A DNA stretch of 64,000 nucleotides, from the sequence record LC788706.1; one strand, 5' to 3'. The translations under genes and the position numbers were made by a program. Source of the stretch: Escherichia coli phage KS_S14. The stretch's first letter is position 1, and every line of letters starts with the position of its first letter. Shown here piece by piece: positions 49,329 to 58,159 of this stretch. The notes beneath the pieces were generated by a model. That model ran no database searches, was not told the DNA's origin, and saw only the letters and a program-made list of their open reading frames with translations.

Positions 49329-49571
49329 TTACGATTCCTTGAGCAAAGAAGCAAGTTCAGCATAGACTTTATCTAATTCAAAGCCGATGCGAAGAGACAC
49401 GTTTGTTTTCCGTTGTTTAAGTAACCACTCGGATATGTTAGGGATGCCAGCTAATCTATGCGGTACCACCCTACATAGCTTTTCCGAAGTGTCGTAAACA
49501 GGAACTTTACGTTCTTTTACTGGAAACTTCCTTGTTTCCCATTTTTTATTCTTCACTGTCATTTCTAGCAC
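49329..49571 (-). CDS. Hypothetical protein
   Basis: 80 aa; overlaps the end of the large helicase-like gene. Confidence 0.35.
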   Translation of the reverse strand: MLEMTVKNKKWETRKFPVKERKVPVYDTSEKLCRVVPHRLAGIPNISEWLLKQRKTNVSLRIGFELDKVYAELASLLKES

Positions 49572-52335
49572 CTAGCTCTGCCATTGCTTCATCATGCATA
49601 TGTTTCTCCTCATCAGTCATAAACTTATACGGGATTGGCATACACTCGATTTTACAATAGGTTCTGTACCAGTCTACAATATTCTCCGTGTTCATATCCT
49701 TACCAATACCCATCATACCAAGATACATTCTAGCATATTTTGGGTTAGCACTCTGACCTGTTTTAAGGAAGAAATCTTTCTTCTTACCTTTCAGAGCTTC
49801 TATAAATGGTTTGATAGTGACATTTGAACACTTCTTAATATCTTCCCAGAACATCTCGTGCATTTTATGGAAAAATGCCGCTCGATCATTCGGTTTATCC
49901 TTAATATATTGTTCAACATGCTCAACTGTTACATCTTTAATAGACTCAAGATGATAATAGCGAACAAGAAGTAGTTTAGCTTCATACGCATCAGCATGGC
50001 GTGGAGCACAATAATCAGGGGTTGAATATAAAATAGCTTTGATTCGCTCTTCCGTATATTCCTTCCCAGCACCTTCGATAGTTCCCCAGCTTTCACTGAA
50101 AATATCAATAGTTGCACCCTGATCAAGCAAGTAATAACGTAAAGTACTAGTATAGTTCCTAGATTCCAGCTCTCTACGACGTGCGTATAATTGCTGTGCT
50201 AACTCCAGCCAACCTTCATCAATGTTATATTGCTCAGAACCTGCGGAGAATCCACTCGTAGATTTATCAATAAAATAATAAATGTTCTGAGCGCCACGGT
50301 CGCGCCTGATTGCTTGAAAACGCATGTTTGGCGCTTGGTTGCTGGTTCTAGTAATAACGAATACGTTATCAAAATAGTTGAAGTCAACACCACTAGTTAC
50401 GGAGGGACTACATAATAAGCAATCAATTTGTTGATCAATTAGCTCATTAGTTGTGTAATCCAGAATACGTCGAATATCTACATCAGACGTAGAGTTTGAG
50501 TGGATTTCCTTAACTAACGCACCCGTATTACGACGCAGCGCCATACCCTTCTCATTCAGTTCATCCGGGCCACAATCAGATACCAGAATAGATTTCTCCC
50601 CCATTTCTAGAGAAGTCTGAAGTGCAACCCAAATACTGGATTCATCAGGGAACTCATAAGCATGAGCTTTTGACAGCATTTTACGGTGATGATTATAAAA
50701 TGCAACCGGTTTATCAAACTCAATTAAAGAACCATATGCTTCAATTGTTTCTGCACTAATATCCCCATCAGATAATATAATAATTTTTGCAGTTGCAAGA
50801 ATGTCACGTAGAACTTGAATACATTCGCGACGTTGTTTAACAACCGGGGCGAATAATAGGTCATTCATTACAGCATCACATTCATCGATAAAGATTGCAT
50901 CAATTTGACCAATAAAACTCTTGAACTTATGCAAAGAGTGAATAGTTGTGGACATACGGTCAATAGCACCACGCTTAAAATTAAGCATATCTACAGACTT
51001 ATCATATTGTCCTGCACTAAATTTCTTAGCATTTGAAGATACCAGTGCTCGAGTATTGGTAATTGCTAAGAAATTACCTTTAATAACTCCTGAATCTAAC
51101 CAACGCACAACCGCCGTAGTTTTACCTGTACCTAGACTTGCTTTTACAAAAGTCATATAACCTTCTGGTGGTACAGTATTTAATTTCAAGAAGTTATCAG
51201 TTTCTAGAGAATTAGTTTCTAGCTTTTTAAGTGGAATACCTTTTAAAACATCAGGTATATCGCGTTTAGAATTATTAACAAACGCTTTCAGAGCCTGTTT
51301 ACGGCCGTTATTAAAGTAATCTTGAATATTACGACTATTATCTTTAGTTGCAATATATTCTGATAAGGCTGGACGGATTTCTTTTTCTAGCCATGCAAAA
51401 TCAACACCATCCTCCAAAGCTCTATGATAGAGTTTAGGTATAATACGTAGATACACCCCATCCTCAGCTTCTTCTAGTTCGCTGATAGTTTCCTCTACTT
51501 TATCAGAGGCAGCTTTTTTACCTTTAATTTGATCGAGTAAAGAGTAAAACTCCTCCTTAAACTCACCTCTAGTTGTTTCATAGTCAACCAGATTATTGGG
51601 TAAATTTACTTTAGAACCCTTAACAAATACCAGACGTGAAGCACCCTCCGCTTTAAACGGATCTACTATACCATCGGTAAATAACGGATCTGCAAAATAA
51701 TGGAGCTGTACGGAAGAGTAATACGCTAAGTCGGCAATATCAAAGCCATACTTTTGTCTACTACTTTCGTTGATAGATGTAAATAAGAATTTGATTTGAC
51801 CCTGAGTTACTTTAACATTAGATTCTAGTATTAAGTGCATTCGGATACCTGGTTTTAGCCCAGACGAAGACGATGCATGAGCGATAAACCCTGCATCAAG
51901 AGGAAACATATCCTCACTAATACTATTTAACATTCTAATAATATGTCGAGCCATGCCAACAAGATCAAACTTGTTACAACCACCTGTATCTACAATACCA
52001 TCCACGTCCATTGCAATTATATGACTTGGGTTAGATACATTAAAGTTGCCCTTCTTACGTCGCACATTATTTTTAGGTGCAAGACATCGACCTCGTACCG
52101 CAACGATATGAGGGTCAGACGTTAAACGTCTCATAAGAGGGAGCATTTCTACTAGGGTTTGAGGATCAACTTCATCAATTACATCAAACTTGAAGGGCAT
52201 TGAAGCTGGTTTACCTTCAGGATGCTTTGAGGAAAATCTTTTAGCAAAAAGATAGTCTTCTGCTTTAACTTCTCGCCAATTGCCTGTGGCTAAATCGCGA
52301 TGAAATCCTGCATGACCTTGTAGGATTGAGAACAC
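49546..52335 (-). CDS. Large SF2-type helicase/ATPase (D2-like putative origin-binding protein)
   Basis: Walker A (ASLGTGKTTAV) and DExD-like (IFIDECDAV) in the second half; start set at GTG 52335 with AGGAG 7 nt upstream (track starts 78 nt earlier at an ATG lacking an RBS). Confidence 0.6.
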   Translation of the reverse strand: MFSILQGHAGFHRDLATGNWREVKAEDYLFAKRFSSKHPEGKPASMPFKFDVIDEVDPQTLVEMLPLMRRLTSDPHIVAVRGRCLAPKNNVRRKKGNFNVSNPSHIIAMDVDGIVDTGGCNKFDLVGMARHIIRMLNSISEDMFPLDAGFIAHASSSSGLKPGIRMHLILESNVKVTQGQIKFLFTSINESSRQKYGFDIADLAYYSSVQLHYFADPLFTDGIVDPFKAEGASRLVFVKGSKVNLPNNLVDYETTRGEFKEEFYSLLDQIKGKKAASDKVEETISELEEAEDGVYLRIIPKLYHRALEDGVDFAWLEKEIRPALSEYIATKDNSRNIQDYFNNGRKQALKAFVNNSKRDIPDVLKGIPLKKLETNSLETDNFLKLNTVPPEGYMTFVKASLGTGKTTAVVRWLDSGVIKGNFLAITNTRALVSSNAKKFSAGQYDKSVDMLNFKRGAIDRMSTTIHSLHKFKSFIGQIDAIFIDECDAVMNDLLFAPVVKQRRECIQVLRDILATAKIIILSDGDISAETIEAYGSLIEFDKPVAFYNHHRKMLSKAHAYEFPDESSIWVALQTSLEMGEKSILVSDCGPDELNEKGMALRRNTGALVKEIHSNSTSDVDIRRILDYTTNELIDQQIDCLLCSPSVTSGVDFNYFDNVFVITRTSNQAPNMRFQAIRRDRGAQNIYYFIDKSTSGFSAGSEQYNIDEGWLELAQQLYARRRELESRNYTSTLRYYLLDQGATIDIFSESWGTIEGAGKEYTEERIKAILYSTPDYCAPRHADAYEAKLLLVRYYHLESIKDVTVEHVEQYIKDKPNDRAAFFHKMHEMFWEDIKKCSNVTIKPFIEALKGKKKDFFLKTGQSANPKYARMYLGMMGIGKDMNTENIVDWYRTYCKIECMPIPYKFMTDEEKHMHDEAMAELGARNDSEE

Positions 52336-52834
52336 AACGATACTCCTGTGTTGGAAATGAAATAAGTTTTCTTTAGGACTATTCAGAAAGAATAGAACAA
52401 CTGTTACTGTCAATTTCTCAACAAATTAATTGCAAATACTGAAGTGGGGTGGCAACTTCCACTTTCACGCTACACTGCCGCTTCACTATACCGCACAAAT
52501 CCTTGAGGATGGCCGCTAAGCCAGATTTGCTCACCTAATGCTTCATGTACTAGCTCATACTAGATGTAGTATACCTTACGTCATCACTTCTCAGAGTTTT
52601 TCACTCTTCCCGTCTCACTTCACAACCACCTCACACTAGGTTGCTTCGAGGCCTTACCAGGGTTCCTACGGGATGTAGATCGCTAAGTATTCTATTAATT
52701 ATTTGTTTAAAAACTAACACGTAACAGTTAAAACAACCCTTAATGGGGCAGCCTAACTGTTCCGTATCGCGGATTGTAAACAAGAAAAATTAGCAAAATC
52801 AATTTTTACTAATGTCTCTCAATTCAATATAAAT
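52336..52834 (-). other. ORF-free, GC-enriched region of about 500 nt: long 5' leader or non-coding RNA candidate
   Basis: No ORF of 60 codons or more in any frame, and no ATG ORF longer than 3 codons found on the minus strand; lies between a consensus promoter and the helicase start; short CACTTC/GTGAAG-type repeats and local inverted repeats. Confidence 0.3.
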
Positions 52835-52863
52835 ATTATATCAAGATTTTGGGCATCCTGCAA
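52835..52863 (-). promoter_or_regulatory. Sigma70-type promoter (minus strand)
   Basis: TTGCAG, 17-nt spacer, TATAAT. Confidence 0.5.
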
Positions 52864-52902
52864 GTAAAATTTTCCGGATGGTGCTATCATTGGTCTTGAG
52901 TA

Positions 52903-52930
52903 CGGATAAAACCGAGCCAAAATGACTCGG
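52903..52930 (-). terminator. Rho-independent terminator (minus strand)
   Basis: CCGAG-loop-CTCGG hairpin followed on the minus strand by TTTTATCC. Confidence 0.45.
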
Positions 52931-52939
52931 TTATGTGGA

Positions 52940-53137
52940 TTAGACACTTAAAATACTTCTAATCTCTTCTATATACTTATCTACTTTTTTAGCATCTACT
53001 TTACTTAGTTTTCCTATGTCAAAATCAGGATCAGTAAACATTCTAGCTATCTCTATCTCTAGAGACTTACTAATTTTCCCTGTAGTATTCCACTTAGAAA
53101 TCTTCCCTTTTATTTTCCAAAATTCCTTATTCATCAT
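52940..53137 (-). CDS. Hypothetical protein
   Basis: 65 aa, Lys-rich. Confidence 0.35.
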   Translation of the reverse strand: MMNKEFWKIKGKISKWNTTGKISKSLEIEIARMFTDPDFDIGKLSKVDAKKVDKYIEEIRSILSV

Positions 53138-53519
53138 TTAATCCCGGAACATATACCCCAACACGATTTAATTGTTCTTTAGCTTCTTTGAGAATATCTG
53201 GAGTGTACTCCCAAATATCATCTTCCACCTGTAAAAGATGGGGCGAACAACTATCATCAGGCACACGACATATGGCCAAACCACGTGGATGGAACAAAGA
53301 GAAGTTTAGGGCAACAATCAAGCCCATAGCAGACAACTCATTCCAATCCAGTTCCCATTCCCCGGCGTATCCAGACAGGAAAACGCCAATGCATGGATCA
53401 TCTATTTGCTGCTCAGGAAAAGTGAAGGAGGCTTGTCTTACCCCCAACCAACGTTGTAGCAGCTTCTCCGCACGTTTCACCAAACTAGGGTCAATCTGAC
53501 GCCAATATACTTGTTCCAT
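53127..53519 (-). CDS. Hypothetical protein, paralog A of a tandem pair
   Basis: 130 aa; shares PCIG..., W.EL..MGL..ALN..LF.P and ...VPGL motifs in the same order with the adjacent 142-aa ORF. Confidence 0.5.
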   Translation of the reverse strand: MEQVYWRQIDPSLVKRAEKLLQRWLGVRQASFTFPEQQIDDPCIGVFLSGYAGEWELDWNELSAMGLIVALNFSLFHPRGLAICRVPDDSCSPHLLQVEDDIWEYTPDILKEAKEQLNRVGVYVPGLNDE

Positions 53520-53528
53520 TGTGCCCCC

Positions 53529-53957
53529 TTAGGCGGTTAAACCCGGAATTTGATAACCAAAACGACGAAGTTTTTGGATACCATCATTTACTTCTTCTGG
53601 TGAGTAAGACCAACCATACCGTTCATTAACTTGAAAACCAGGAGATTCGTTGGTTTTATAGTTAACAACAATACGGTGTTTATTAGGCATAAACAGCCTA
53701 TAGTTTAACGCAAAAACCAAGCCCATTTCATCCAACTCTTTCCAGCCAACAATCTCTTCAAGACCCTCCTCTACCTGCACAATTAAACCAATACAGGGAG
53801 CTTCTTCAATCTCGCCTTTAAAAGCAAAGGAGATTTCATTATTCTCACACCATATTTTCAGAGCATTAATAGCCTCATTGTACAGGTTGGCTGGAAGAGT
53901 ACGCCAAAAATTAACCAATATCGGGTTAGCCTCTTTAGAGAATACATTATTGAACAT
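53529..53957 (-). CDS. Hypothetical protein, paralog B of a tandem pair
   Basis: 142 aa; see paralog A. Confidence 0.5.
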   Translation of the reverse strand: MFNNVFSKEANPILVNFWRTLPANLYNEAINALKIWCENNEISFAFKGEIEEAPCIGLIVQVEEGLEEIVGWKELDEMGLVFALNYRLFMPNKHRIVVNYKTNESPGFQVNERYGWSYSPEEVNDGIQKLRRFGYQIPGLTA

Positions 53958-53959
53958 AT

Positions 53960-54466
53960 TTACACCTTAAATTGTTGTAGGGCTTTACACATTTCAAGAT
54001 CTGGGCTAAATTCTAACATATAGCTAACAGCTCTTAAATCTTGAAGATTTATTCCAGTTCTACCATTGACTATAACCGTTGGATACTGATACATCATAGC
54101 ACCAGCATCATCCAGCACACACCAATGTTTGAGCCTATGCTTTTCAACGAAGCGAAGAACAGAATTACCCCTAGATAATCCACCACCAGTAAAATCCGTT
54201 GTACCAAGAAAACGATCAATAAGATCTAATCCGGTCATAATCTGAACGTTCTCCATCTCATTCCTGACAGAGAACCATGAAGATACTCCAACAATCATTA
54301 TTGGGGAAGGACGAATAAAGTCCTGAAAAGCCTTGAGAAGCGGTTTAAAAACCCAGTCACTTCCAAAGAAAATCTTTTCATCATCAGGTGCATGGTGATG
54401 GGAGATGCTCGAGTTGAGCACCCCATCAATATCTAGAAAAATAATTGGAGTATTACTTATTTCCAT
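53960..54466 (-). CDS. HAD-superfamily phosphatase
   Basis: Motif I FLDIDGVLNS near the N-terminus, DD motif (CVLDDAG) later; 168 aa. Confidence 0.55.
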   Translation of the reverse strand: MEISNTPIIFLDIDGVLNSSISHHHAPDDEKIFFGSDWVFKPLLKAFQDFIRPSPIMIVGVSSWFSVRNEMENVQIMTGLDLIDRFLGTTDFTGGGLSRGNSVLRFVEKHRLKHWCVLDDAGAMMYQYPTVIVNGRTGINLQDLRAVSYMLEFSPDLEMCKALQQFKV

Positions 54467-54635
54467 TTTTGTCCCTTTCTAAGAACGTATCATACTCAAC
54501 CGTATCAACATATATGACACCATAGTCATCGGATTTATAGTCCATTTCCCATAGCTCACACCGATAGCACCAACTACCATCCGCCCATACAAATATATCA
54601 TCTGGATGTGTATACACAGATTTAACTATGGACAT
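54453..54635 (-). CDS. Hypothetical protein
   Basis: 60 aa; overlaps both neighbours. Confidence 0.3.
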   Translation of the reverse strand: MSIVKSVYTHPDDIFVWADGSWCYRCELWEMDYKSDDYGVIYVDTVEYDTFLERDKNGNK

Positions 54636-55450
54636 ATTTGTTTTCCCGGCATATAAGGTCTACCCTCTAAATGGGCTTCCACACGAGCAATAAAACCAGG
54701 GTCACTGAAAGCATCTACCGCACCTTTACTCCAGTAAGAAATACCCCGATCTTCCAGTTGGTACATATCACTACGAGTCATGCCTTGATAGCCTGGTTCT
54801 GCCGCTAGGGCACTATCGTAGTAGTTAACCACCATAAGTTTCGCAGCAGTCAAATTAAGAATAGGAAATAATTCCCAGTAGAAGTTAATTACTTGGTTAG
54901 AGCAACCAACTACAACGATCATATCTTGACTGGTAATACCATCAAAAATATTGTACATTTCTGCGTACGCTGGAGCATGCTCACCAAAGAAGATTACATT
55001 AGGTTTAACCCATTTATAATCATCTGGGTCAATAGAGCTATACCCAACATCAATAACTCGTTTATTGCTACTATTGTAGCTGTCAGCTACAACAACCTCT
55101 TTTAAATACCCATGAATATGCAAAATGTCACTATGCGGAACACCAGCACGCTCAATAAGGTCATCAACGTTAGTAGTCAAATTTACTACTTGACCCGGAT
55201 ATTTCTTATACCATTCACCAATACGCAAGTGTGCAAGATTGGGTTCAACAGTTTTTAGCTCTTCACGTCGCTTGTTGTAAAACATATGGGTTTTATGATA
55301 AAAATTACCACGAAAGGCATGAATATTACATACCTCTTCTAAGTCATACTCATCCCACAATGCTTTACCACTGGCAGTATCAGTACGGAAGGCTCGTACA
55401 CCACTTTCGACACTCAAACCCGCACCGCTAATAATAATTAATCTACGCAT
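54626..55450 (-). CDS. Sir2-family (sirtuin-like) NAD-binding domain protein lacking the zinc ribbon
   Basis: N-terminal ISGAGLSVESGVRAFR (sirtuin GAG...FR NAD-binding motif), later HIHG and FFGE; no CxxC...CxxC zinc module visible. Confidence 0.6.
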   Translation of the reverse strand: MRRLIIISGAGLSVESGVRAFRTDTASGKALWDEYDLEEVCNIHAFRGNFYHKTHMFYNKRREELKTVEPNLAHLRIGEWYKKYPGQVVNLTTNVDDLIERAGVPHSDILHIHGYLKEVVVADSYNSSNKRVIDVGYSSIDPDDYKWVKPNVIFFGEHAPAYAEMYNIFDGITSQDMIVVVGCSNQVINFYWELFPILNLTAAKLMVVNYYDSALAAEPGYQGMTRSDMYQLEDRGISYWSKGAVDAFSDPGFIARVEAHLEGRPYMPGKQICP

Positions 55451-56127: not shown

Positions 56128-56226
56128 AGCTTTCTCCTCTCAAATTTATAAATCTATTATATATAAATTTTTGGCTGAAAGCAAATAAAATAAAAGCCAG
56201 GTCGACTAGCAACCCGGCTGATTAGC

Positions 56227-58130: not shown

Positions 58131-58159
58131 ATTATAACTCATTCGAGGGCGGATGTCAA
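58131..58159 (-). promoter_or_regulatory. Consensus sigma70 promoter for nrdD (minus strand)
   Basis: TTGACA, 17-nt spacer, TATAAT, then GAAGGAGAG RBS before the nrdD ATG. Confidence 0.6.

Follow-up and report, generated by a model that had tools for sequence, protein, structure and literature searches.

The closest described relatives of the gene pair analysed here are T5.106 (YP_006934) and T5.107 (YP_006935) of the classical model phage T5. A CRISPRi-ART screen of T5 on laboratory E. coli scored T5.107 as 'Fit' (score -2.90, p = 0.0215) and T5.106 as 'Not Fit' (score -3.28, p = 0.167), T5.107 being one of 17 'Fit' T5 genes and one whose function is described there as entirely unknown (Adler et al., Nat Microbiol 2025, PMC11879866). 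The re-annotation of T5 made for that screen assigns phrog_2502 to both genes (PMC11879866). Literature searches for the Pfam family DUF7415 (PF24187), to which both proteins belong, for its PHROG numbers and for T5.106/T5.107 themselves turned up no paper with these names in its main text, and the only mention of the genes was in the CRISPRi-ART supplements. Here we describe the orthologous pair in a 64,000-nucleotide stretch of Escherichia coli phage KS_S14 (record LC788706.1; hereafter the window), where two adjacent minus-strand genes encode acidic early proteins of about 15 kDa with 142 and 130 amino acids.

The 142-amino acid protein (53529..53957, minus strand) is 97% identical to T5.106, and the 130-amino acid protein (53127..53519, minus strand) is 95% identical to T5.107. 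We refer to the two lineages as the 142-type and 130-type paralogues. Both genes are preceded by strong Shine-Dalgarno sequences read from the DNA, AAGGTG at 53963-53968 for the 142-amino acid gene and AGGGGG at 53524-53529 for the 130-amino acid gene. The phage is T5-like (a Tequintavirus), and the surrounding 3.1 kb is 92-95% identical to many genomes of that genus. Gene order, operon and downstream terminator are the same as in T5. The window phage differs in having an extra open reading frame (ORF) of 65 amino acids between the T5.107 orthologue and the terminator, and in lacking a copy of T5.103.

Paralogy, age and selection

The original prediction, made from the letters of the window, held that the two adjacent proteins share an ordered set of motifs and arose by local duplication followed by divergence. 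Pairwise alignment agreed with the shared motifs. BLASTP aligned the proteins over 124 residues with one gap, at 32% identity and 48% positives (E = 1e-20), and all three motifs (PCIG, W.EL..MGL..ALN..LF.P, and V/IPGL) fell in register. A remnant of the duplication is still visible in the DNA: the 43 nucleotides at 53303..53345, which encode the shared W.EL..MGL..ALN, are 79% identical to 53702-53744 at a spacing of 399. This remnant was the only feature returned by a repeat scan of 52300-54100. Both proteins match DUF7415, with 106.4 bits (130 amino acids) and 112.4 bits (142 amino acids) against a gathering cut-off of 27 bits, and both match phrog_2502 (E values of 1e-60 and 1e-62). Judged by sequence, the similarity of the pair is far beyond chance and the genes are true paralogues.

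The relationship is already implicit in public annotation, where both genes carry DUF7415, phrog_2502 and VOG3964, the last assigned to both genes in RefSeq rokbiter. They are catalogued hypothetical T5 genes in a named DUF family. Because public resources already place them together, the tandem paralogy, though correct, is already recorded and is no discovery.

The duplication itself is supported by both the alignment and the family, but it is ancient rather than recent, since the same two lineages occur in the same order in related phages. The order 142-type then 130-type is common to T5, Epseptimavirus (rokbiter, phiR2-01) and Sugarlandvirus, and the pair lies between HAD or Sir2 genes on one side and the origin-binding helicase gene on the other. 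When the 130-amino acid protein was used as query against the phage collection, it matched 1295 places in 858 records. There are thus 437 more places than records, and 437 is also the number of records whose best match has at least 60% identity, which fits the presence of both copies in every T5-like (Markadamsvirinae) genome. Only one gene is found at this position in Serratia phage Slocum, and Pectobacterium phage My1 likewise carries just one. In a neighbour-joining tree built without bootstrap, these two single copies fell in opposite paralogue clades, which suggests that the duplication predates the Demerecviridae subgroups and was followed by differential loss.

The description of the genes as rapidly diverging held in part. 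Compared with rokbiter, the proteins of the pair are 73% and 70% identical, below the 90-97% reached by NrdD, the HAD protein, the origin-binding helicase, D2 and D3. The ratio of nonsynonymous to synonymous substitution rates (dN/dS) of the pair was nevertheless low, at 0.09 and 0.19 against rokbiter and 0.08 and 0.05 against T5. The pair thus evolves faster than the core enzymes yet is under clear purifying, not diversifying, selection, and values of 0.05-0.19 carry no signature of an arms race. The classification as early genes agreed with their place in a minus-strand operon that runs from a perfect sigma-70 promoter before nrdD to a terminator conserved with T5.

Internal organization and predicted structure

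The Pfam model matches each protein twice, and all four halves exceeded the cut-off when scanned separately. In the 142-amino acid protein, the DUF7415-like N-terminal half spans residues 15-65 (53763..53915, minus strand; 67.4 bits) and the C-terminal half, with a degenerate motif, residues 69-112 (53622..53753, minus strand; 49.2 bits). The corresponding halves of the 130-amino acid protein are residues 3-54 (53358..53513, minus strand; 60.5 bits) and residues 57-98 (53226..53351, minus strand; 50.3 bits), the latter being a canonical DUF7415 sequence. AlphaFold2 (AF2) gave confident, compact models for both proteins, with a predicted local distance difference test score (pLDDT) of 91.1 and a predicted template modelling score (pTM) of 0.84 for the 142-amino acid protein, and 95.8 and 0.89 for the 130-amino acid protein. 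Each model shows the same order of elements twice (a short strand, a short helix starting from a conserved Trp, a long helix and a beta-hairpin), and a C-terminal helix follows the second copy.

The C-terminal halves clearly belong with the single-domain members of the family (hhalign probability 99.4%, E = 1.8e-21), and the tblastn and BLASTP matches of the 130-amino acid protein to single-domain and fused DUF7415 proteins span its 57-98 stretch only. BLASTP found no similarity between N-terminal and C-terminal halves. A first hhalign/hmmsearch signal between them was rejected: it came from P0038, which is a piece of the N-terminal part of a 142-type protein and had contaminated the single-domain set. 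Viewed through the Pfam matches and the models, an internal repeat is plausible.

PDB sequence searches with both proteins returned no match. Fold comparison of the models likewise found no structural relative in the PDB, no nuclease and no solved anti-defence protein, the last group comprising Tad/Acb-type nucleotide sponges, the DNA mimics Ocr and ArdA, and Acr proteins.

The two copies differ at the most conserved part of the family. The C-terminal half of the 130-amino acid protein keeps the N, H-P, G-L-A, R and S of the family pattern N..HPxGLA..R..S. In the C-terminal half of the 142-amino acid protein the His and Gly are lost (H to M, G to K), LNYRLFMPNKHR, while N, P and S are retained, so that H-P-x-G-L-A in the shorter copy stands against M-P-N-K-H-R in the longer one. 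Neither N-terminal half has the core motif. The first gene of Sugarland is likewise degenerate; more distant 142-type proteins retain the His. Retention of the motif in the 130-amino acid copy fits the fitness calls for T5.107 and T5.106.

The wider DUF7415 family

A profile search of 1.84 billion representatives yielded 420 clusters at E <=1e-3. The family comprises PF24187 and PHROGs 2502, 3954, 1812 and 33705; both T5-type proteins score far above the cut-off and carry the region of the core motif in their C-terminal halves. The commonest form is a single module of 60-90 amino acids with the core DWNxLSxxGLxxxINxEILHPLGLAxxRDPxTGxSxG, in which N, H, G and S are invariant. Across all members, the only invariant residues are G, L, N and P. 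All members are acidic, with isoelectric points of 4-5.5. Hosts are mainly Gammaproteobacteria, and the carriers are T5-like, T4-like and P2-like phages. Whereas most members consist of one module, free or fused, the T5 type has two modules, the N-terminal one very diverged, and occurs as two paralogous genes.

Fusion partners include MazG-like proteins, the dATP/dGTP pyrophosphohydrolase PF04447, thymidylate kinase, an Rv2179c-like DEDD exonuclease, DUF3850/ASCH and Lar, and there are further fusions with several domains of unknown kind. In these proteins the module follows the MazG-like or pyrophosphohydrolase domain and the exonuclease domain, and precedes ASCH/DUF3850 and Lar. The fusions to named domains share the C-half module with the window proteins at about 40% identity. 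The window proteins differ from them in having no enzymatic or zinc-ribbon partner domain, and carry a second, degenerate module instead.

The genomic settings of DUF7415 genes are varied. A single-domain gene lies between nrdD and nrdG in the T4-like Klebsiella phage TNG87 (locus L004, 2980-3213) and Proteus phage PM2 (locus L110, 3046-3312). In RB16-like phages, a DUF7415 gene is found two genes downstream of NudE, and in Aeromonas phage Ah1 one lies directly 3' of rnlA. P2-like prophages carry the gene in the early replication operon beside gpA, Dam methylase and a DksA-type zinc finger. In Pseudomonas-type P2-like phages it sits in the late operon between gpL, a head-completion gene that it follows directly, and gpX. 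This gpL-gpX slot was the commonest single-domain context in our IMG/VR sample, which was pattern-selected, confirmed against a Pseudomonas P2-like seed protein and is biased toward that context.

The slot directly after the replication gene A of P2-like phages holds interchangeable small genes. In Klebsiella prophages it is occupied by a MazG-like::DUF7415 fusion (L009, 6001-6558; L012), and in P2 by Orf91, a DUF3850/ASCH protein (L013, 4317-4646). We had considered Orf91 as a candidate DUF7415 protein and rejected it as DUF3850. A DUF7415::DUF3850 fusion also exists (P0215). The slot is followed by a conserved ORF of about 231 amino acids and by cargo, for example a KAP NTPase. Some proteins of P2-like prophages (P0098, P0116 and P0143, from loci L095, L098 and L100) carry another small mobile module, approximately EISDFFAGxGQPGAPETxEEMQxxLxxRxExV, on the N- or the C-terminal side of DUF7415; this module had no Pfam match.

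A candidate binding module and its alternatives

We propose that DUF7415 is a non-catalytic binding module whose target lies in nucleotide or DNA metabolism, and that the T5 proteins are fused pseudo-dimers of it; we give this reading a probability of about 40%. Each protein would contain a small alpha/beta module twice, as canonical DUF7415 in the C-terminal half and in strongly diverged form in the N-terminal half, and would therefore resemble a covalently fused dimer of the module that is free (60-90 amino acids) in other phages. The module would dock onto a conserved component of nucleotide or DNA metabolism, either host- or phage-encoded. The 130-amino acid (T5.107-type) protein, which keeps the conserved face of the family, would be the active binder. 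The 142-amino acid (T5.106-type) protein, whose face is lost in T5-like phages, may serve as its partner or be a sub-functionalised copy.

We infer non-catalytic binding, the nucleotide-metabolism link and a division of labour between the copies from several lines of evidence. A non-catalytic role is suggested by the invariance of only G, L, N and P, the acidity of all members, and the lack of an enzyme domain or PDB structural relative. The fusion partners, mostly nucleotide or nucleic-acid enzymes, point to a target in nucleotide or DNA metabolism, together with the fitness effect on the laboratory host and several neighbourhoods (nrdD/nrdG, NudE, rnlA, and the nrdD-Sir2-HAD operon of the window phage). 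Motif retention in the 130-amino acid copy, the differing fitness calls and the low dN/dS of the pair (0.05-0.19) also count in favour of the proposal. That stand-alone copies occur in P2-like phages without nucleotide enzymes suggests that the target is host-encoded. A mechanistic precedent, by analogy only, is T7 gp1.2, a small acidic early phage protein that protects the dNTP (deoxynucleoside triphosphate) pool by binding and inhibiting the host dGTPase.

Several observations weigh against this proposal. Clean hhalign profile comparison of N-terminal with C-terminal halves was not significant (P = 0.012-0.035) and brought no confirmation of their homology, which leaves the Pfam matches and the order of secondary-structure elements as the support for an internal repeat. 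The fitness effect scored for T5.107 is marginal, in a screen that also overlooked genes of evident importance, among them the origin-binding helicase gene T5.108. In the IMG/VR sample, single-domain members are most often found in the late operon of P2-like phages, which themselves have no nucleotide enzymes. Nucleotide-metabolism genes abound in the early regions of large phages in any case, so the neighbourhoods give a weak signal. The Lar fusions and Dam methylase neighbours would equally fit an anti-restriction role, and the invariant N, H, G and S of the single-domain family could mark a ligand or catalytic site.

The original prediction had pointed to host interaction or counter-defence, and a version of this idea is the strongest competitor: the proteins would be counter-defence or host-takeover inhibitors that block a host immune or restriction protein, with the tandem copies specialised for different targets. 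One DUF7415 protein is fused to a Lar restriction-alleviation domain, and in P2-like prophages the gene adjoins Dam and Dcm methylases and gpA. Stand-alone genes occupy moron-like slots, either gpL-gpX or after gpA beside cargo (KAP NTPase), and the copies are patchily distributed, a phage having 0, 1 or 2 of them. The acidity common to all DUF7415 members and an evolutionary rate some 3-4 times that of the neighbouring core enzymes would also be in keeping with such inhibitors, but dN/dS is well below 1 with no sign of diversifying selection, and within T5-like (Markadamsvirinae) records the pair is fixed and syntenic. A cost of T5.107 knock-down on a laboratory strain would be unusual for a defence-specific inhibitor, and the fold is unlike any solved anti-defence protein. 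There was no PADLOC match either, though PADLOC lists defence rather than anti-defence proteins. On balance we consider counter-defence rather unlikely.

Two further readings were considered. The module could bind a small molecule, such as a nucleotide or a nucleotide-derived signal, acting as an allosteric sensor for fused enzymes or as a free sponge. The invariant N, H and S and a near-invariant R-D-P turn fall within about 45 residues of the single-domain family, and the fused enzymes act on (d)NTPs or dNMPs (deoxynucleoside monophosphates). Small regulatory domains that bind ligands typically have a dimeric or pseudo-dimeric build, as do the sponge proteins of phages, and such a build is likely here. 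We nevertheless hold this reading to be quite improbable: purifying selection acts on the 142-amino acid copy and on all N-terminal halves although the conserved polar residues are missing from them, the invariant residues lie in the models at helix caps and hairpin turns and may be purely structural, and the fold has no clear similarity to known ligand-binding folds or to ferredoxin-like/ACT-type regulatory domains. Enzymatic activity of another kind is implied by several GenBank records, whose depositors named these proteins 'exonuclease' or 'Phage exonuclease (ACLAME 70)'. We reject this label, which is contradicted by domain, fold and residue analyses and is almost certainly wrong. Pfam, NCBIfam and PHROGs gave no nuclease domain, with only a single sub-threshold chance match in the NCBIfam scan of both proteins; there is no structural match to any nuclease and no conserved acidic catalytic set. 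The match to the Rv2179c-like fusion P0222 is limited to its DUF7415 tail (195-249), outside the nuclease domain (2-176), and fusions of this kind are the most likely source of the label.

A bolder reading can also be framed. DUF7415 would be a previously unrecognised, structurally novel phage effector module, binding either a conserved target in the host or a signal derived from nucleotides, and so protecting the nucleotide supply of the phage or blunting nucleotide-based immunity. T5.106 and T5.107 would then form a heteromeric inhibitor or sponge of fused dimers, with one subunit active and the other degenerate. We regard this as speculative and rather unlikely.

Operon context and neighbouring genes

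The minus-strand operon runs in the order nrdD, three small ORFs, a Sir2-like gene, a 60-amino acid ORF, the HAD gene, the 142-amino acid gene, the 130-amino acid gene and the 65-amino acid ORF. A consensus sigma-70 promoter (TTGACA-17-TATAAT, 12 of 12 positions) lies just upstream of nrdD at 58131..58159 on the minus strand and is the probable start of the early operon that carries the pair. A terminator-like hairpin was found directly 3' of nrdD (56195..56219, minus strand). Taken with the perfect promoter before nrdD, this hairpin may attenuate read-through into the Sir2-HAD-DUF7415 genes. The operon is closed by a rho-independent terminator hairpin at 52910..52932 on the minus strand (fold -13.5 kcal/mol, z = -4.45), whose core is identical to the terminator annotated directly after T5.107 in T5.

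The 65-amino acid ORF (52940..53137, minus strand; phrog_29527) is the last gene of the operon here and is not part of the paralogue pair. It overlaps the stop of the 130-amino acid gene by 11 nucleotides and is annotated in ESCO30 and GEC_vB_N5. As tblastn found no match to it in the T5, rokbiter, phiR2-01 or Sugarland loci, we interpret it as a small strain-specific insertion.

Upstream of the pair, a 168-amino acid protein (53960..54466, minus strand) has a HAD_SAK_2 phosphatase-like domain in Pfam (73 bits). RefSeq T5.105 and phrog_18062 name it 'Sir2 (NAD-dependent deacetylase)', a name apparently carried over from the neighbouring true Sir2 gene at 54626..55450. Sugarland and Slocum lack the HAD gene. 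T5 has a further small tandem pair, T5.103 and T5.104, which are neighbouring genes of phrog_5116 (L007, 244-602); the window has one copy only, at 54453..54635 on the minus strand, 100% identical to T5.104. The stretch of about 530 nucleotides (52414..52939) that separates the operon terminator from the gene for the origin-binding helicase (49546..52413) has no convincing ORF, and T5 has an annotated promoter in the matching region. An Rfam scan of 52300-54100 found no RNA family and nothing above noise in 52414..52939.

Implications

What this analysis adds to the catalogued pair is the double Pfam match in each protein, the ancient origin combined with purifying selection, the His-Pro-x-Gly core confined to the 130-amino acid copy, and the list of fusions. 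The value of the pair may lie in the family behind it, with about 420 clusters at 50% identity, a fold that has no solved relative, repeated fusion to dNTP-handling enzymes, and one member, T5.107, with a marginal reported effect on fitness. If DUF7415 is indeed an effector module of the bolder kind framed above, T5.107 would gain a mechanism; few other T5 genes of unknown function are reported to affect fitness. Identifying the target of DUF7415 would fill one gap in the early functions of T5 and would set right the names 'exonuclease' and 'Sir2' now found across GenBank entries for this operon.
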